A stretch of DNA of 7,746 nucleotides from a virus (lineage: Duplodnaviria; Heunggongvirae; Uroviricota; Caudoviricetes): IMG/VR virus record IMGVR_UViG_2778261451_000010; one strand, 5' to 3'. Below the pieces are notes generated by a model that worked only from the letters and a program-made list of their open reading frames with translations, had not been told where the DNA came from and did not search any database. The position numbers and the translations under genes are program-made. Below, one piece after another: positions 1 through 7,746 of this stretch; positions within the stretch are counted from its first letter, which is position 1, and every line of letters starts with the position of its first letter.

Positions 1-1170
1 TCACTCCTCATTTTCTTCTGAGCTGTACTCCACATCGGAGAGTTTAACCTCAAGCTCTAAGCCCGTCGTGAAACCGTTATTATTGAGGTTGTGGGTCACC
101 TTGCTGATTAACCATGCCTGCTCGTCTATGACGCGCTTAAAGCCTGACACGCGTACAGGCGTCTCAGGAAATAAATCCGCTCGCCCTAGCGCCAGTGTGA
201 TTGAAAACTCCGCAACGCCTCGCTGCAGTTTATCCCACTTAGCCTGAGCGGCGCGCATTGCCTGTGCCTTTGAGGCATAGACCGTCGTCAGCGCCAGCAC
301 GTTATCGGCTTCACCGGCCATGTACTCACCCTCACGTGCTTCCTGTTCTTTTTTGACCTTTGTCTTTTTGCTGACCGGCTTTGCTTTTGGGTGTTCCAGT
401 GCGCGCAGGTGCTTCTCTTTTGGCTTGCGTTTCAGCGTTACTTTCTGCTTTTGTGGCTTCGGGTCTTTGGTGTGCAACCATTTAGCAGTGACGCCGGTAT
501 AAGCCCCACGGTCGGCAATGGCAAACTGATGACGGTCACCATCACTGCGGGTCAGCGTCATTTGCGGGACGGGTTTGCCGCTGGCCGTCATCGCACTACC
601 GGCTTTCAGAAACAACAGTTTCCCTGCCTTCACCGATACCGTTGCCCCGTTGCGGTCAGCCAGTCGACTCAAAAATACCGCGTCGGATTCCTGCGACTGG
701 TCGATATGCGGTACCGGGATTTTTTTCAGCGATTCCGCAATGTTGGCCGTCAGTTTGTTGCGCTTTGCGATGGTACTGACCAGTTCGCCGATGGTGGTGT
801 CGTGCCATGACTCTTCACGCCTGGAATTTAGCGTGCCGCGAAAGTCCGCGCTGCGCGCCCGGATGGTCAGGGTATCAGGAGCCCCCCGGTGCTCAATCTC
901 ATCGACCGTAAAATCCCCCTTATTCAGCAGCGCCGAACCCTGCCAGCCAAGCCACAACGTCAGCACTGCCCCGCGCAGGGGTAACTCGACTTTCCCATCG
1001 GTGTCATCGAGCTCAATGTCGAGCTGGTCAGCTTCAAAGCCCCTATTGTCCGTCATGGTGAGAGAAATCAGCCGGTCGCTGAAGTTGCTGGTAATGTCCT
1101 GACTGTTCAGCGTCAGCATAAAAGCCGGTGCAAGGCTGGCACCGGCGTCAATTGCCATCCCCGTTATCAT
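1..1170 (-). CDS. D: Tail protein D (P2 gpD-like baseplate hub / late control gene D protein), 389 aa, complete
   Basis: ORF in track; N-terminus MITGMAIDAGASLAPAFMLTLNSQ and overall length match my recollection of P2 gpD; last gene of the module, directly after U with ATGA start/stop overlap at 1167-1170; stop codon occupies window positions 1-3. Confidence 0.88.
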   Translation of the reverse strand: MITGMAIDAGASLAPAFMLTLNSQDITSNFSDRLISLTMTDNRGFEADQLDIELDDTDGKVELPLRGAVLTLWLGWQGSALLNKGDFTVDEIEHRGAPDTLTIRARSADFRGTLNSRREESWHDTTIGELVSTIAKRNKLTANIAESLKKIPVPHIDQSQESDAVFLSRLADRNGATVSVKAGKLLFLKAGSAMTASGKPVPQMTLTRSDGDRHQFAIADRGAYTGVTAKWLHTKDPKPQKQKVTLKRKPKEKHLRALEHPKAKPVSKKTKVKKEQEAREGEYMAGEADNVLALTTVYASKAQAMRAAQAKWDKLQRGVAEFSITLALGRADLFPETPVRVSGFKRVIDEQAWLISKVTHNLNNNGFTTGLELEVKLSDVEYSSEENEE

Positions 1171-1652
1171 GCAGTGAAACCTCCGGGCATACCCTGCAGT
1201 TTATCTGTCAAATTACCGGCAGAGCCGAGAAGCTCACTGGCCTGTTTATTCAGGTCACCAAACATCTCTGTCAGCGATTCATCAACCCGTTTTAGCGAAA
1301 GCGTGAAATCAATCTTTCTGGCCGCACCATCACTGAAAAACTCGGTGCGTGTAGTCGATACTTTATCGACGATATACATCCCGAGGATATTTCCGGTTCC
1401 CTCTATCAACGGCCACGCTCTGCCTTCATTGGCCATCACCTCTACAGCCTTTAGTGAGATCCAACCGCCAGTGATAGCGGGGTATAGCGTACCAGCAAGC
1501 TGTATCGAGGTTTCCCCCTCGCCAAGAAACTGATAGGCAGGTGGTTTACCCACCCGGTCATTGGACACCCAGCGATAATCTTTCGAATGCTGCATCGACT
1601 GGTAAGGCAGGGTGCGAAGTTCAAACACAAACATTCCGAGAGCAAGCATCAT
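1167..1652 (-). CDS. U: Tail protein U (P2 gpU-like tail terminator / tail completion protein), 161 aa
   Basis: ORF in track beginning MMLALGMFVFELRTLPYQSMQHSKDYRW, size about 160 aa, position between T and D as in P2; a GGGGG Shine-Dalgarno lies 5-10 nt upstream of the ATG at 1650-1652. Confidence 0.88.
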   Translation of the reverse strand: MMLALGMFVFELRTLPYQSMQHSKDYRWVSNDRVGKPPAYQFLGEGETSIQLAGTLYPAITGGWISLKAVEVMANEGRAWPLIEGTGNILGMYIVDKVSTTRTEFFSDGAARKIDFTLSLKRVDESLTEMFGDLNKQASELLGSAGNLTDKLQGMPGGFTA

Positions 1653-1665
1653 CGTTTAATCCCCC

Positions 1666-4110
1666 TCAATAGTCGTGGGTCATGTTGGCACGCTGGCGGG
1701 CGCGTTTATCGCGCTCAATCTGTTCGAGCGTGTCGCGTAGTTGTCTGTCAAGCTGATGCCCCGGCGCAACACCTCCCGGCAGATTGATGTTGTATTCGCT
1801 TTTGCTCTGGTCAATGTAAGAGCGCCCCGCCGGTGCGGTAACTGGCTGATAAGCCTGATAGCCGCCATATGTGCTGGTTGCCGGGATGTAGGAATTACCC
1901 TGTGTGGCGGCATTGGTTTTGGCGGCGGTCTGGTCGAGGCTGTCCGACTCTTTGTTGATGATGCCGAGCTTTTCGAGAAGCCAGTCGACACCGCTGCGCA
2001 GCTTGTTAAAAACATTGAGCGGAGCCATCAAGGCAGAGGCCAGTGCCTGACCAAATATGACGCCGACATTTTTGCAGCTATCAAGCGTTTCCTGCGTGGC
2101 CTTAACCGGTGCTATCAGGTCTTTAAACCACTGCCAGACGCCGCGCAGTTTCTCGCCGAGACCATCAAAAATGGGAGCCAGTGGAGCGAACATTTCCCCG
2201 ACTGGGGCAAAGGCACTCATGATGCCCTCAATCACTCCCGAGAAAAATGCGCTGATGGGCTCCCAATATTTACGGATGAGTAGCGCCCCCGCCACAATCG
2301 CCGCACCGACGGCCACTATCGGCCAGGTAATCGCACCGAGCGCTGTCGCAATGGCACTACCGACGACAGTAAAGACCGTACCCAGCACGCCAGCAGCGGC
2401 GATAATGGCATTAATTCCCATGACAACCGGCCACGCAACGAGACCAATGCCGCCGATGATACCAATCAGCGCCAGCGCACCACCGGCAATAATCCCGATA
2501 GTTGTCGTCAGCCCTTTGTTTTTCTGGATCCAGCCGTCGAGCTTCAACACGTATTGTGTGGCGGTTTGGGTGAGTTTGCGCAGCGAGCCCTCTTGCTGGT
2601 CAAAAAGGTCGGTACCGACAGCCTCATAAGCAGACTGGAACTCTTTAAAATCACCGCCGAGGTTGTCCTGCATAATTTTAACAAGCTCTGCGGTTTTTCC
2701 GTCTGAGGCTTTCAGGGTGGAGGTTAGCTGGTCAAGTTTGCCGGTTGAGGCGGCAGTCATGAGCACTGCCGCCGCCGAACTGGCTTCCTCACCGAATATC
2801 GTTTTCATGTATTCGGCTTGTTGACCGGTGCCGAGATTGTTACGCTCAAAACTGGCCTGCATTTCCTTGAGGATGGTAAAAATCGGGCGCGTGTTGCCTT
2901 TACTGTCGGAAGTTTTGACACCCAGCTCCTTAAGCGCATCCCACGCTTTACCGGTCGGAGCCTGCAGGCGGCTTAAAACCGCACGGCTCCCGGTGCCGGC
3001 CATCGAGCCGGTGATTTTGGCGTCATGCAGGGCGCCCACCATTGCGGCAGTTTCTTCAATGCTGACACCGGCATTTTTCGCCACCGGCGCGGCGTATGTC
3101 AGCGCATCGCTCAGCCCGTCGAAATCGGCAGCAGTTTTATTCATCACCGTCGACAGAACGTCGCCAATGTGCGCCACCTTGTCATTGGAAAGCTGAAACG
3201 CAGAGCGCATCCCCATCAGTAATGCGGCGTTTTCTTCCATCGTGCGACGGTTGGCAAGCGCCATATTGAGGGTGACCGGTGTCGTCGCCTGAATGGCTGC
3301 CGCATCGCCACCCCCTTTGGCGATAATAATCTGCGCACTGGCTGCATCATCAGCAGAAGCGGCTGTATTGTCACCGAGCTGGCGTGCCTGTTTGCGTAGC
3401 GCCTCCATTTCTGGTGACTGCTTATCGACCCCGAGCACAGCCTGCAGCTCGGAGTTTTTTTGCGCAAAGTCATAACCGGGCATCAGCAATTTAACCCCGG
3501 CCATCGTTCCCGCTGTCGCAATACCGACCCCGGCAGCACCTGCAGCGGCCATGTTACCGGCAAGTTCCTTACCCGATTTATATCGCTCTTTCACTCGGTT
3601 TAGGTGCGCCTGCTGTGCGCTGACCTTCGCCAATGCTTCGCGCTGCCGGTTGAGCTGCGCCGTCGTCTCGCTGATGCGTGTTTTAAGCCCCCGCTCATCG
3701 TTTGCCAGATTGCGGGTATTGATACCGGCGGCACCCAGCTCGCGTTGCTGGCGTTTAACCGACTCGGTGAGGCTGTTGTATTTAACCTGCAGCCCCTCGG
3801 CGGCACGTTTTGCGGATTCGAGCACCTGTGCCTGCGCTCGCGTCGGGCGCTCAGTATTTTTGAATTGCGTGGCAAGCGCTTCAGCCTCGCGCTTTGCCTT
3901 CTCCAGCGACTGGCCGGTTACGGCCAGTTGAGCGCTGGTTTTGCGAAAGCCGTCGATTTTCGCGGCCTGCCCGTTCAGGTCACGCAGCCCTTTTTGTGTG
4001 TCGCGAATATCGCCCGACAGGGTTTTACTCGCGGTCTGGATGGATTTAAGCGGTCGGGTCGCCTGGTCGACCGCTTTCAGCAAAACCTCAAGTCTCAGGT
4101 TATTACTCAT
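1666..4110 (-). CDS. T: Tail tape measure protein (P2 gpT-like), 814 aa
   Basis: 814-aa ORF; long alpha-helical, Ala/Gln/Arg/Lys-rich N-terminal region, a central block of Gly/Ala/Ile-rich hydrophobic helices (..TTIGIIAGGALALIGIIGGIGLVAWPVVMGINAIIAAAGVLG..), and position immediately downstream of E/E'; start ATG 4108-4110 overlaps the E' stop. Confidence 0.92.
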   Translation of the reverse strand: MSNNLRLEVLLKAVDQATRPLKSIQTASKTLSGDIRDTQKGLRDLNGQAAKIDGFRKTSAQLAVTGQSLEKAKREAEALATQFKNTERPTRAQAQVLESAKRAAEGLQVKYNSLTESVKRQQRELGAAGINTRNLANDERGLKTRISETTAQLNRQREALAKVSAQQAHLNRVKERYKSGKELAGNMAAAGAAGVGIATAGTMAGVKLLMPGYDFAQKNSELQAVLGVDKQSPEMEALRKQARQLGDNTAASADDAASAQIIIAKGGGDAAAIQATTPVTLNMALANRRTMEENAALLMGMRSAFQLSNDKVAHIGDVLSTVMNKTAADFDGLSDALTYAAPVAKNAGVSIEETAAMVGALHDAKITGSMAGTGSRAVLSRLQAPTGKAWDALKELGVKTSDSKGNTRPIFTILKEMQASFERNNLGTGQQAEYMKTIFGEEASSAAAVLMTAASTGKLDQLTSTLKASDGKTAELVKIMQDNLGGDFKEFQSAYEAVGTDLFDQQEGSLRKLTQTATQYVLKLDGWIQKNKGLTTTIGIIAGGALALIGIIGGIGLVAWPVVMGINAIIAAAGVLGTVFTVVGSAIATALGAITWPIVAVGAAIVAGALLIRKYWEPISAFFSGVIEGIMSAFAPVGEMFAPLAPIFDGLGEKLRGVWQWFKDLIAPVKATQETLDSCKNVGVIFGQALASALMAPLNVFNKLRSGVDWLLEKLGIINKESDSLDQTAAKTNAATQGNSYIPATSTYGGYQAYQPVTAPAGRSYIDQSKSEYNINLPGGVAPGHQLDRQLRDTLEQIERDKRARQRANMTHDY

Positions 4111-4590
4111 TGTGGTGTCCGCTACGCTGCAGCGCCTTTTCGCGCCATGTGATGAGCTCGGTCAGGCTCAGGGAATAGAGCTCTGATGGCGACCAGTGGA
4201 ATATCACTGCAATATCCGCCATCAGGTCATCGGTCGACAGGTCGGGCGGAAAATCTACTCCGCCGAAGCCGGTGACAAAAAACCAATCACCTTAGCGGCC
4301 AGCGAAAGCATATCGGGCAGGTTCATCGCGGTTAGCTCCTGCGTGGTGAGCGCGGGATAGGTCATGCGGGGCAGCACTTTAATCAGCGCATCGACCTCGG
4401 ACTGCGCCACCGCCGCCAGACTGACACCGCGCAGGGTACCGGCGTTCGGCTCAATCAGGGTGACTTTATCAATCGTCTGACCGGCGCGCTTAATCGGCTT
4501 GTCGAGGGTCACGACGTTCGGGTTTACGGTGTCAATTTCATTGCCAGCCGTATCAACAAATTCAGCGGTTTTACGTGGTGCTTTTGCCAT
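4103..4590 (-). CDS. E+E': Tail assembly chaperone E+E' produced by programmed -1 ribosomal frameshift at T_TTT_TTG (plus-strand coordinates 4276-4282); predicted 162 aa
   Basis: By hand translation, the -1 frame after the heptamer is open for 57 codons (VTGFGGVDFPPDLSTDDLMADIAVIFHWSPSELYSLSLTELITWREKALQRSGHHNE) and ends at TAA 4103-4105, 2 nt before the T start codon. This is the conserved chaperone/chaperone-extension arrangement upstream of tape measure genes (lambda G/GT, P2 E/E+E'). Confidence 0.78.
4255..4590 (-). CDS. E: Tail assembly chaperone E (P2 gpE-like), 111 aa, in-frame product
   Basis: ORF between the tube gene and tape measure gene; contains the slippery heptamer near its 3' end; position and size are typical of the tail chaperone upstream of the tape measure gene. 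Confidence 0.8.
   Translation of the reverse strand: MAKAPRKTAEFVDTAGNEIDTVNPNVVTLDKPIKRAGQTIDKVTLIEPNAGTLRGVSLAAVAQSEVDALIKVLPRMTYPALTTQELTAMNLPDMLSLAAKVIGFLSPASAE
4276..4282 (-). promoter_or_regulatory. Slippery heptamer T_TTT_TTG for the -1 programmed frameshift (reads caaaaaa on the plus strand)
   Basis: Zero-frame codons GGT TTT TTG give X_XXY_YYZ geometry; the -1 frame is open downstream to a stop overlapping the T start. Confidence 0.75.
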
Positions 4591-4610
4591 GATGTTTTTC
4601 TCTGCTCTGA

Positions 4611-4645
4611 AAGGGGATTAATAACCGGCCAGCCATGCTGACCGG
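4611..4645 (-). terminator. Candidate partial intrinsic terminator / attenuator hairpin directly after the FII stop codon
   Basis: Minus-strand RNA CCGGUCAGC-AUG-GCUGGCCGG forms a 9-bp GC-rich stem (one G.U pair) followed by UUAUUAAUCCCCUUUC. The U tract is interrupted, so at best a leaky terminator that would lower expression of genes downstream of the abundant tube protein. Confidence 0.3.
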
Positions 4646-4653
4646 TCATGGAA

Positions 4654-5172
4654 TTACAGCCCGATTGCGCGGCGGTGCTGTTCCAGACGGTCGACGCCGT
4701 TCACCTTCTCGACCATGTTGACGGTGTCGATTTCGATGACGTCGCTACCATCAATCGTCAGGCGGTAATAGGTGCAGACCGTCGACAGTTTGGTCGAGGT
4801 GTTTTCACCCTGCTTATTTTCGCCGCCGTCGATTTCTTTATGACGGCCACGCATGACCACCTCGACCGCGTTGATTTCGCCGGTGTCGTCGCGCTGGTAG
4901 GATCCAGCAAAACGCAGCGGCACAGCGTCAGCACCCGGCGCGGCGTACTGCGCCCACAGAGCCACATCAGGCTGGCCACCGACAGACCACTCGACGGTTA
5001 ACGCATCATCGTCGAGACCGAGGTCAATCGCCGCCGCGCCATTCATGCCGCCGCCGCGATAGTTTTCGAGTTTGCGGGTCAGCTTCGGCAGCGTCACGGA
5101 TTCAACAACGCCCATATAGCTAAGGCCGTCGTTAAACATGTTCAGATATTTGAGTTTGCGGGGTAGTGCCAT
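4654..5172 (-). CDS. FII: Tail tube protein FII (P2 gpFII-like), 172 aa
   Basis: ORF beginning MALPRKLKYLNMFNDGLSYMGVVESVTLPKLTRKLENYRGGGMNGAAAIDLGLDD and ending VNGVDRLEQHRRAIGL, matching my recollection of P2 FII; sits directly downstream of the sheath gene. Confidence 0.93.
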   Translation of the reverse strand: MALPRKLKYLNMFNDGLSYMGVVESVTLPKLTRKLENYRGGGMNGAAAIDLGLDDDALTVEWSVGGQPDVALWAQYAAPGADAVPLRFAGSYQRDDTGEINAVEVVMRGRHKEIDGGENKQGENTSTKLSTVCTYYRLTIDGSDVIEIDTVNMVEKVNGVDRLEQHRRAIGL

Positions 5173-5187
5173 GTTGTTTCAGGCTCC

Positions 5188-6366
5188 TTAGCTGTTGACC
5201 GATTCGGCCAGATTCACCAGATATTTATCGGTGATACGCTGGCGCAGGGTCAGGCTTTCCAGTGGTGGAACCGGCGTATAGTCGTAGTCGATATACAGTT
5301 TCCCGGCCTTGAGGGTTTCCTTGTCATTCGATTCCTCGTCGAACCAGCATTCACCGTCCACGATGTAGCCATTTGATTTCAGCTCGCGGAATTTGGCATT
5401 AATGCCGTCGACAATGTCACGGATGAGCGATGCGGTAATGGGCTTATCGACCGCCCACATGTGAGCCTCGGCCATCGTGTCGGCCAGCACCTGCGCGGTG
5501 CGGGTGTAGTTCTCAAACAGGAAAAGCGGGTCATCAGAGCAGGTGCGGTTACCCCAAAAGCGGAAACCATCTTTGCGCACCAGCGTCGTGACCCCGGCCT
5601 CGTTGAGCAGGTCAGCATCGGTACCAGATGCCTGCAAATCCCAAAACACTGAGGCGCTGATGCCGGTGACACCCTGCACGCCGACGTTAGACAGGGTTTT
5701 ATGCCAGCCGACGGTCTGGTCGATGTAGGCGCGCAGGCCGAGTGCGCGCGCAGTGGCGTAGGCTGTTGCAGTGGCGTTCGCGGTGGTGTCCCATGCGAGG
5801 AAATCAGGCCAGATAAGCATCAGTTCGCGCTGGCTGAAATTCTCGCGATAGGCCATCGCCTCGGAAATAGTCTTACAGCCCCATGCACTGACATAGCCAA
5901 AGGCGCGCAGGCTGATACAGACCGACGCAAGTGCGACTGCGACCTCTTTGGTATCGAGCCCCGGCACGCCGAGAATGCGCGGCTTAACGCCGGTGACCGC
6001 TTCGGCAGTCAACAGCGCCTTGATACCGGTGTATTTACCGTTCTCATCCGTGCCGCCGATGATATTTGAAATGGTCTGCGCTTCCGCGTCTTCTCCGGTA
6101 CCTTCGGCAACACGCACGACAACGGTGACGGGCTTTGACTGGTCGGCGATGGCCTGCAGGGAGGCAGACAGCGTGCCTTTTTTACCGGCTTTCGCAATGG
6201 CGCTCTGCACATTGGTAATCAGTACCGGCTCGTTGAGGGGGAATGTCGCGGCATCCGCATCGCTGGCCGTGCAGACCATGCCGACAATTGCGGTTGCAAC
6301 AGTGGAAATGACGCGGGTGCCGTCGTTAATCTCAAGCACCTGCACGCCGTGGTGAAAATCACTCAT
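5188..6366 (-). CDS. FI: Tail sheath protein FI (P2 gpFI-like), 392 aa
   Basis: ORF in track. I place the start at ATG 6364-6366 (MSDFHHGVQVLEINDGTRVISTV...), preceded by GGAG 8 nt upstream, rather than at the upstream TTG the track uses; the N-terminus then matches the P2 FI N-terminus as I recall it. Confidence 0.93.
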   Translation of the reverse strand: MSDFHHGVQVLEINDGTRVISTVATAIVGMVCTASDADAATFPLNEPVLITNVQSAIAKAGKKGTLSASLQAIADQSKPVTVVVRVAEGTGEDAEAQTISNIIGGTDENGKYTGIKALLTAEAVTGVKPRILGVPGLDTKEVAVALASVCISLRAFGYVSAWGCKTISEAMAYRENFSQRELMLIWPDFLAWDTTANATATAYATARALGLRAYIDQTVGWHKTLSNVGVQGVTGISASVFWDLQASGTDADLLNEAGVTTLVRKDGFRFWGNRTCSDDPLFLFENYTRTAQVLADTMAEAHMWAVDKPITASLIRDIVDGINAKFRELKSNGYIVDGECWFDEESNDKETLKAGKLYIDYDYTPVPPLESLTLRQRITDKYLVNLAESVNS

Positions 6367-6443
6367 CCGGTTAACTCCGTGGTTAGTGGGCAAGTGTTAT
6401 TGTCCTGGCTGGTCTGTTGAGGGGCTATTTGTCAGTGTTGGGC

Positions 6444-6466
6444 GATGTCTGACACATTGAGACATC
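6444..6466. promoter_or_regulatory. Perfect 7-bp inverted repeat GATGTCT-N9-AGACATC upstream of FI; possible late-promoter activator (Ogr/Delta-type) binding dyad
   Basis: Dyad centre lies about 89 nt upstream of the FI ATG; it contains TGT...ACA half-sites but with N13 spacing in my reading, not the canonical TGT-N12-ACA; no U tract follows, so it is not a terminator. Confidence 0.3.
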
Positions 6467-6707
6467 AGCAACGGATGCGGGAAATTTTTTGTATAGCGTT
6501 GAGATACCCGAGGCGATCCAGTTTCCAGACCACAAGCGTATCGCCCTCTGACAAGGTTCTGAGTAACCTCTTTAGCCCCGGCCAGTCTGATGTTTTGCCG
6601 CTGATTTTATCTTCGAAAATCAGCTCACATCCTGCGCACTCCAGTTCATTTCGCTGTAATGCGGTGTTCTGGTCATTTGTTGATACACGTACATAACCGA
6701 TAAACAT
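6465..6707 (-). pseudogene. Truncated serine recombinase (Hin/Gin/Pin/Cin-family DNA invertase), N-terminal catalytic fragment only
   Basis: MFIGYVRVSTNDQNTALQRNELECAGCELIFEDKISGKTSDWPGLKRLLRTLSEGDTLVVWKLDRLG matches the invertase N-terminus including the catalytic Ser in the RVST motif; homology stops after residue 67 and the ORF ends 13 codons later (YLNAIQKISRIRC*). Only about 100 bp remain before FI, so the E-helix and C-terminal HTH DNA-binding domain are absent. Confidence 0.8.
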
Positions 6708-6761: not shown

Positions 6762-6787
6762 TTTTCTAAAAGGTTGGTTTGGGAGAA
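6762..6787. promoter_or_regulatory. Candidate Hin/Gin-type inversion crossover site (hix/gix-like, 12-2-12 bp)
   Basis: Minus-strand reading TTCTCCCAAACC-AA-CCTTTTAGAAAA matches hixL (TTCTTGAAAACC AA ...) at 9 of 12 in the left half with the AA core; the plus-strand right half GGTTTGGGAGAA matches the gix right half GGTTTTGGATAA at 10 of 12. It lies about 55 bp upstream of the invertase start and at the 5' boundary of the plus-strand fibre-tip reading frame. Reference sites are recalled from memory. Confidence 0.45.
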
Positions 6788-7117
6788 GCCAGATATGTCA
6801 TTCAGCGAGGAGCTAATGCCAATGGTGCATGGATACGCTGGTCAGATGGTGCAATAGAAGTATTTGGAACCGGTGGATCTAATGATAATGGACTGGCTAA
6901 AGTTGTTTACCCAATTGCACTGCCTAAACTTTCACGTTTTATCAGTATCGCGGAAAGAATAAGAACGGATTACGAGAGCACACCTAATAATGTTCACGTT
7001 TCAATGATCGTGGATGATCAGGTAACAAATACCGGCTTTTATGCCCGCTGCCAGATGTACGACGGCAGACCATCATCAAATGCTTTTTCCTGGAGGGTTT
7101 ATTGTGCGCCTGTTTAA
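6779..7117 (+). CDS. Alternative tail-fibre C-terminal tip cassette (Sv'/stfE-like variable receptor-binding domain); has no independent start in its current orientation
   Basis: The frame opens at 6770 right after a TAA inside the candidate crossover site; the sequence ..GAWIRWSDGAIEVFGTGG..VVYPIALP..TGFYAR..FSWRVYC.. follows the pattern of phage tail-fibre C-terminal tip domains as I recall it; opposite strand to the tail operon and AT-richer than flanking genes. Confidence 0.55.
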   Translation: MGEARYVIQRGANANGAWIRWSDGAIEVFGTGGSNDNGLAKVVYPIALPKLSRFISIAERIRTDYESTPNNVHVSMIVDDQVTNTGFYARCQMYDGRPSSNAFSWRVYCAPV

Positions 7118-7301
7118 TCCAGTTACTTTGACTGAAGTAATCCCCGGTCTTCATGACGTGACCGGGGCTATTGAATTACCGGAGGACAACTGGTTTTTTA
7201 CTATGACAGAAATTCCTCAGGGCATGGAGCTAACAATTAATGAGAAAGGCGAACCAATACTAATTGAGGTTAATCAGTCTCAGGGAATACAGGCCAAATA
7301 A
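7104..7301 (+). CDS. Short ORF (about 65 aa) downstream of the alternative fibre tip; possible remnant or minimal form of an alternative tail fibre assembly protein (U'/tfa-like)
   Basis: GTG start at 7104 with GGAGG 7 nt upstream, overlapping the fibre-tip stop by 14 nt (operon-like coupling); it terminates inside the 3' end of the convergent Tfa gene. Function is assigned by position only; I see no recognisable conserved Tfa C-terminal motif. Confidence 0.3.
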   Translation: MRLFNPVTLTEVIPGLHDVTGAIELPEDNWFFTMTEIPQGMELTINEKGEPILIEVNQSQGIQAK

Positions 7302-7746
7302 TATCAGGCGCGGTGCTGGTATCTGTTGCCGTCACCGCGTCAGTGTAATCCAGCACAGCGTTAAGCCGGGTTGTTTCTGCCTGCGTCAGTTTCCGCCCGG
7401 CCTGTAATTTCAGCTGAATCAGACTAATGGAAGCCATTGCTGCATCAATCAGTGACTGACGCTGTGCTTCTGCCGCTTCTACTGCGGCACCGTGTTGTGC
7501 CTCAGTATCCGTCACCCATTTCTCACCATCCCATTTATCGTATGGCGTTAATGGGGCGATAGTGGTTGTATTATCAGGGTAATTACCCGGAGCTGTGATT
7601 TCTTTTGATTCTCCTGTTGCGGTGCTAAAGACGATTTCACCGCGATGGTCTGGCACATATTCCCATGAGTTAAAATCTGCAGAACGGCAGATTGCATAAC
7701 CAGCTTTGTATGCGCCTGGAGCATCTAAACAGGAACATGCCGGAAT
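7270..7746 (-). CDS. Tail fibre assembly protein (lambda Tfa / P2 gpG / Mu U family), 5'-partial; the N-terminus lies beyond the window end
   Basis: Conserved motifs SWEYVPDHRGEIVF and the C-terminal ..RLNAVLDYTDAVTATDTSTAPDIIWPVFPE resemble lambda Tfa (..SWHLVEDHRGKTVY.. / ..RVDTSTAPDIEWP..). The track starts the ORF at GTG 7656, but by hand translation the frame stays open to position 7746 and the DHRG motif normally sits about 60-70 residues into Tfa proteins. Confidence 0.85.
   Translation of the reverse strand: MPACSCLDAPGAYKAGYAICRSADFNSWEYVPDHRGEIVFSTATGESKEITAPGNYPDNTTTIAPLTPYDKWDGEKWVTDTEAQHGAAVEAAEAQRQSLIDAAMASISLIQLKLQAGRKLTQAETTRLNAVLDYTDAVTATDTSTAPDIIWPVFPETD

Follow-up and report, generated by a model that had tools for sequence, protein, structure and literature searches.

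The question raised by this locus is whether a 65-codon ORF that lies directly behind a phage fibre tip is a damaged tfa gene or a small gene with a role of its own. The ORF starts with GTG, runs from 7104 to 7301 on the plus strand of the window, by which we mean the whole stretch of 7,746 nucleotides analysed here, and encodes a product of 65 aa. The first-pass annotation described an ORF at this position with a 32-nt convergent overlap with the tfa gene, and it left the choice between a deletion scar and an unusual minimal chaperone or unrelated small protein. Position and overlap are confirmed. The window is 100% identical to a prophage of E. coli EC6622 (locus L001; window position = L001 position + 399), in which RefSeq lists the hypothetical protein WP_001440573.1 at the same coordinates. 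The stop codon of the minus-strand tfa lies at 7270–7272, and the two genes share the 32 nt from 7270 to 7301, a feature to which we assign no strand. With 61 ORFs of at least 40 aa in the window, a length of 65 codons is by itself unremarkable; the short ORF is lifted above chance by its conservation.

The window belongs to a P2-like prophage and represents its tail region, with genes D, U, T, E, FII and FI on the minus strand (1–6393). A truncated serine invertase of the Pin/Cin type is found on the minus strand at 6465–6707 (Resolvase E 6.8e-20, residues 3–67), for which RefSeq records a pseudogene 'missing C-terminus'. In this remnant (6465–6707 on the minus strand, with 6394–6506) about 67 N-terminal resolvase residues are intact before the sequence diverges, a deletion has removed the C-terminal part together with the HTH, and about 70 nt separate the remnant from the start of the sheath gene. 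The invertase-proximal crossover site, a pix-like sequence AAAAGGTTGGTTTGGGAGAAG at 6768–6788 without assigned strand, is one arm of a 21-nt inverted repeat. An alternative fibre tip cassette on the plus strand (6779–7117) encodes 112 aa from the crossover site and ends in FSWRVYCAPV; it matches phrog_2557 at E 3e-15 and, weakly, Gp53-like_C. This tip ORF is promoterless in the window and joins the constant part of H after inversion. The gene on the other side of the short ORF is a full-length two-domain tfa of the TfaE type on the minus strand (7270–7746, Caudo_TAP E 6e-32), which runs past the window end, has 201 aa in the full record and belongs to the currently expressed cassette.

The partner crossover site is beyond the window, inside gene H (about 8327–8347 in window numbering), with 1538 nt between the arms in L001. 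The sites match the published e14 site TTGGTTTGGGAGAAGG, and the segment, about 1.58 kb in size, is of the Pin type. Inverted crossover sites thus flank two opposed tip cassettes, and the window cassette is in the OFF orientation beside an invertase that is not intact. Unless a further Pin supplies the activity in trans, the window segment is probably locked, and for e14 such trans action by PinQ and PinE is documented (PMC12529663). Related loci carry intact invertases of 186–199 aa, and the module is observed in both orientations. The identical 65-aa protein is OFF in L016–L020, L022 and L023 and ON in L015, L021 and L024; in the ON loci a 463-aa H protein ends in the tip of the window and is followed by the short ORF, with an intact invertase near. 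The IMG/VR loci comprise 31 ON and 28 OFF cases, and both annotation patterns occur among the 116 E. coli genomes with the module, which is found in P2-like and in e14/Mu-like baseplate contexts. Many relatives of the short ORF lie on contigs of about 1.2–1.7 kb, and the longest carrying contig is below 2 kb in 1077 of the 2928 assembly-collection blocks in which the window protein is indexed. The two ends of a Pantoea wallisii contig (L011) coincide exactly with the arms of a 15-nt inverted repeat (1–15 and 1665–1679). We ascribe the short contigs to short-read assemblies breaking at crossover sites, as expected for a segment of mixed orientation or a repeated segment.

This organization is similar to the e14 P segment (stfP/tfaP - tfaE/stfE - pinE), the Mu G segment and the P1 C segment, in which two opposed tip-plus-chaperone cassettes likewise lie between inverted sites, with an adjacent serine invertase and a convergent 3' overlap of the chaperone genes. 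In contrast to these segments, one cassette of the window has a 65-aa N-domain-only protein in place of a two-domain Tfa, and the window invertase is truncated. The expectation that alternative chaperones have about 175 aa does not always hold, as TfaP of e14 has 137 aa and a shortened Tfa in related segments has 88 aa. It had also been pointed out that the convergent overlap leaves no room for a terminator. Indeed, no terminator-like site above chance was found between the short ORF and tfa in the window, but the arrangement itself is normal for this family of segments, since tfaP and tfaE of K-12 e14 overlap by 29 nt, compared to 32 nt here.

The start of the short ORF is tightly interlocked with the end of the tip. 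A Shine-Dalgarno sequence GGAGG (7092–7096, plus strand) is placed 7 nt before the GTG and is embedded in the tip codons W-R-V (TGG AGG GTT); its GGAG is kept in most loci examined. The start codon is GTG in the E. coli lineage of the window versus ATG in other genera. A single A-to-G change (7101–7106) accounts for this difference, and it also replaces TAT (Tyr) by TGT (Cys) in the overlapping tip codon, giving ...RVYCAPV versus ...RVYYAPV. The short ORF always follows one tip class, ending in ...FSWRVYxAPV. The stop of the tip ORF (6779–7117) overlaps the start of the short ORF by 14 nt, in which the ...YAPV terminus with its stop codon and the MRLFN... start are co-encoded, and this exact overlap is found in 13 of the 14 loci examined closely and in most of 61 IMG/VR loci. 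Identities of tip and short ORF co-vary with a Pearson coefficient of 0.74, a value not corrected for phylogeny. As for Tfa genes, the short ORF is directly downstream of a fibre tip and co-inherited with it. In the metagenome protein P0164 (...GFSWRVYLRLFNPITMTEV...), the tip is fused in frame to the short protein, which is either a natural fusion of tip and chaperone or the result of a sequencing frameshift.

Protein database searches retrieve 123 relatives when the short ORF is used as a single query sequence, and 234 when a profile is used. The 161 relatives that were listed are all between 46 and 100 aa long, with modes at 61 and 65 aa, and the short form has a length of 57–69 aa. At least 12 genera are represented among the listed relatives. 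The family includes Escherichia, Enterobacter, Salmonella, Citrobacter, Cronobacter, Kosakonia, Hafnia, Yersinia, Xenorhabdus, Erwinia and Pseudescherichia, to which a genome scan adds Pantoea, Intestinirhabdus and Trabulsiella. The alignment of the family shows a gap-free core of 55 residues (codons 1–55, 7104–7268 on the plus strand) with 11 invariant residues, F4, N5, T10, E11, H17, A22, L25, W30, F32, P51 and L53, followed by a tail of 2–12 residues that varies in length and sequence. Of the 5426 complete E. coli genomes searched, 116 carry the module with the short ORF. Selection was assessed by the Nei-Gojobori method on codons 2–55 of 11 loci from seven genera. A mean pN of 0.21 compares to a mean pS of 0.72, at which synonymous sites are saturated, the median dN/dS is about 0.12, and of the 54 columns, 51 are variable at the third codon position. 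The upstream tip behaves like the short ORF, with dN/dS of 0.1–0.2. An intact short ORF of 58–69 aa is found in 59/59 complete copies among the 61 IMG/VR viral contigs. The short ORF is a real, widely conserved phage gene under strong purifying selection. The first-pass annotation had stated that the same short ORF conserved under purifying selection in related elements would mark a true small gene rather than a scar; this is what we find, and on this ground the reading as a recent scar is refuted.

In full, this alternative is a deletion scar or pseudogene, a remnant of a full-length alternative tfa that lost its C-domain and has no function of its own. The short ORF does lack the Caudo_TAP C-domain that its longer homologues have, and the adjacent invertase in the window is also truncated. 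Low dN/dS with saturated synonymous sites across genera, the intact copies, and the conserved start codon, Shine-Dalgarno sequence and 14-nt coupling overlap argue against it. The same holds for the prophages in which the short ORF stands alone. In non-invertible P2-like prophages (L027–L032), no gene other than the homologue of the short ORF separates H from the sheath gene, so that it is the sole occupant of the gpG slot, and no tfa is nearby. The homologue has 58 aa, is 67% identical to the window protein and is followed by an intrinsic terminator; the H protein of these prophages has 433 aa, with a tip ending in FSWRVIYAPV. The same layout of H, short ORF and sheath gene is found in 9 diverse IMG/VR contigs whose flanks contain no invertase.

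The 3' end of the short ORF tells a different story from its core. Wherever the two genes overlap, codon 55 is followed after 2 nt by the stop codon of tfa, and this is the case for five tfa types, with overlaps of 17 to 32 nt. This fixed junction resembles a single old fusion or deletion, as a scar would. The copies in Xenorhabdus and Pantoea speak against a scar here: in these, the short form has its own stop 2–6 codons past the core, a terminator hairpin and no overlap. Weighing both sides, we regard the scar or pseudogene as very improbable. The hairpin is GC-rich and located between the short ORF and tfa (at about 4180–4207 in L009, L012 and L013, and at 540–583 in L011); it is a candidate bidirectional terminator and has been lost from the overlapping enterobacterial versions. 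From the position of the tfa stop, fixed after codon 55, and from the own stop and hairpin in Xenorhabdus and Pantoea, we conclude that residues 56–65 (the variable tail, which with the stop codon covers 7269–7301 on the plus strand) are read-through into the antisense of tfa and not a functional extension. The last 10 codons and the 32-nt overlap would then have no separate function and be what an old compaction of the intergenic terminator left behind. In two other E. coli P2-like prophages (L033 and L034, both 3471–3737 on the minus strand), the convergent gene with the same 32-nt overlap is the 88-aa shortened Tfa, paired with a glycine-rich tip. Its N-domain is of another type and leads straight into the terminal ...DTSTAPGVIWPVPPEMV motif, the helical region being absent, and the protein is a second, independent kind of shortened Tfa.

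Where the core comes from is indicated by its longer homologues. The short ORF is a member of phrog_5400 (E 1.4e-25; residues 1–64 aligned to profile positions 1–66 of 145), which PHROG annotates as 'unknown function'. The greater length of this profile is due to two-domain members such as gene_1 of Cronobacter phage JK004. This protein has 128 aa and follows directly after a related tip ORF; its N-terminal 56 residues are like the short ORF, with 34% identity, and its C-domain is a Caudo_TAP domain (Pfam 1.4e-20). P0178, a Gilliamella-type Tfa of 131 aa, is related to the short ORF with a BLASTP value of 1e-15 and 45% identity over residues 1–51, and the core aligns end to end with P0178 residues 1–57. 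P0178 itself is recognised by the Pfam model Caudo_TAP (3e-20), and with its C-domain it matches Mu Tfa (PDB 5YVQ_B; E 5e-5). The short ORF is therefore homologous in its N-terminal domain to a bona fide PF02413 member. It lacks the conserved helical C-domain and the ...D(T/x)xxAPxxxWPxxP end of PF02413, for which no match was obtained at E values up to 1. Alignments with the long forms end at about residue 57, and beyond the core, the window sequence is antisense to the neighbouring tfa. By sequence homology, the core is the N-terminal domain of Tfa-type proteins without the conserved helical C-domain, which supports the earlier guess of a Tfa N-domain whose C-domain is missing. In P0177 and P0185, the same N-domain is joined to other C-terminal ends. 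In a Gilliamella-type locus (L026, 2721–3590 and 3590–4372), alternative tip and long-form Tfa adjoin a recombinase of the tyrosine type (Phage_integrase) rather than a serine invertase.

Searches of Pfam, NCBIfam and PDB sequences with the short ORF or its profile gave nothing meaningful. The family has no Pfam or NCBIfam model and no curated annotation, and we found no literature on it. Several candidates were rejected. The giant repetitive proteins P0162, P0170, P0179 and P0181–P0184 are not tandem-repeat relatives; their matches are an artefact of summed weak repeats. P0162 (2709 aa) reaches a phmmer E of 2e-32 with the 65-aa query through 15 weak stretches and illustrates caution on summed repeat scores, not homology. 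As whole proteins, these sequences score 'significant' for many unrelated Pfam families without any individually significant stretch, and they are Spiralin/DUF285 or Ig-like repeat surface proteins. TfaP of K-12 e14 (137 aa) was discarded as a longer counterpart, its N-domain being of a different type by inspection. Restoration of a C-domain by frameshift or read-through was also dismissed, as the sequence downstream is tfa antisense in the window, and the non-invertible prophages have a terminator there and then the sheath gene.

The AF2 model of the short ORF, built with a 23-sequence NCBI-sourced alignment, has a mean pLDDT of 81.5 and predicts a small beta-rich folded domain at residues 1–55, with strands up to residue 55. 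The tail beyond is predicted to be disordered (pLDDT about 40). A single-sequence model was poor, with a pLDDT of 51, and was set aside. The fold search of solved structures with the short-ORF model gave no match, the N-domain of TfaMu included. The best viral fold match is ORF47 of Pantoea phage LIMEzero (Foldseek probability 0.99, E 0.04, TM 0.56–0.59), a 60-aa protein named 'tail fiber assembly protein' in UniProt. In this lytic phage, ORF47 likewise follows directly after the tail fibre gene, and it can be aligned colinearly with the short ORF from its MRYF... start. LIMEzero differs in being an Autographiviridae phage, the function of ORF47 is putative, and the sequence similarity is not significant (hhalign probability 18%). 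The fold match is suggestive.

In its location directly after a fibre gene and in its pairing with a tip, the short ORF is similar to the Tfa family (Mu gpU/TfaMu, PDB 5YVQ; lambda Tfa; P2 gpG; PF02413). Its core is homologous to the N-domain of the members P0178 and JK004 gene_1, the domain that binds the fibre in TfaMu. For Mu Tfa and Pam3 gp25, the variable N-domain binds the fibre and the conserved C-domain trimerises (PMC9608196). The short ORF differs from the family in having neither the helical C-domain nor the ...D-x-APxxxWPxxP end, and in its length of 57–69 aa compared to 130–200 aa for two-domain Tfa. We consider it likely that the short ORF is a functional small gene and encodes an N-domain-only 'mini-Tfa', the cognate partner of the ...FSWRVYxAPV tip; tip binding and a role in fibre assembly we infer by analogy. 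Inversion would fuse the constant part of gene H to the tip upstream of the short ORF, and the mini-Tfa would then be translated from the same late transcript as H, the 14-nt stop/start overlap, together with a GGAGG site of its own, coupling its translation to that of H. In analogy to the N-domain of Mu Tfa, it would attach to the fibre trimer at the distal tip and act there as assembly helper or as retained cap. A small domain on the distal fibre tip, possibly staying as a cap, is a concept shared with Pam3 gp25 and the fibre chaperones of Alteromonas phages; these keep the helical trimerisation part, and the likeness is conceptual.

Two further alternatives accept the short ORF as a real gene. 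It could be derived from a Tfa N-domain and retained as a tip accessory instead of a chaperone, acting as a transient cap that shields the receptor-binding tip, as a co-adhesin or as a lysogen factor that blocks incoming phages with prophage fibre fragments. Mu Tfa stays on the fibre tip and may contact the receptor, and the Alteromonas phage chaperones have been proposed as transient caps that are dispensable for folding (PMC10579305; PMC9608196). In addition, inversion of the e14 P segment yields a fibre-derived protein that blocks T2 adsorption (PMC12529663), and the loss of the trimerisation domain suits a binding-only role. Since some assembly factor is usually expected in the position where the short ORF is the sole gene after H, we hold an accessory without chaperone function to be unlikely. 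A split chaperone is the second alternative, in which the mini-Tfa depends on a Tfa C-domain that the convergent full-length tfa or tfa genes of other prophages provide in trans. It would fit with most copies of the short ORF adjoining a full tfa, with the different C-terminal ends joined to the N-domain in P0177 and P0185, and with phrog_3792, a profile of 78 residues that matched only the C-terminal residues 78–156 of the 158-aa Tfa fragment in the window; Tfa domains thus do occur as separate modules. In the ON orientation, however, the neighbouring tfa is antisense to the late transcript, and the non-invertible prophages with H and the short ORF have no tfa to supply such a domain, so that we give the split chaperone hardly any weight.

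Fibre tips and their chaperones set the host range of phages and tailocins and are swapped routinely in engineering. In the current model, which derives from Mu Tfa and Pam3 gp25, the C-terminal trimerisation domain has the essential and conserved role, and a widespread, selected partner with only the N-domain questions the generality of this model. Coming back to the mini-Tfa, we propose tentatively, and with somewhat less than even confidence, that the 55-residue tip-binding domain alone is a complete accessory factor for one myophage tip class, for which the helical C-domain, regarded as the universally conserved core of Tfa function, would be dispensable. It might serve as a minimal chaperone or else as a cap that stays on the tip or covers it transiently, and it could also modulate receptor recognition. 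The domains of Tfa would in that case be freely separable modules that occur in N-only, shortened and two-domain forms in one and the same family of invertible segments. A family so far annotated only as 'hypothetical protein' also receives a name and a probable role. The pair of tip (about 110 aa) and partner (about 55 aa) offers a very small and tractable system for asking what the minimal task of a chaperone is, and the selected loss of a supposedly essential C-domain makes the minimal needs of a fibre chaperone directly testable.
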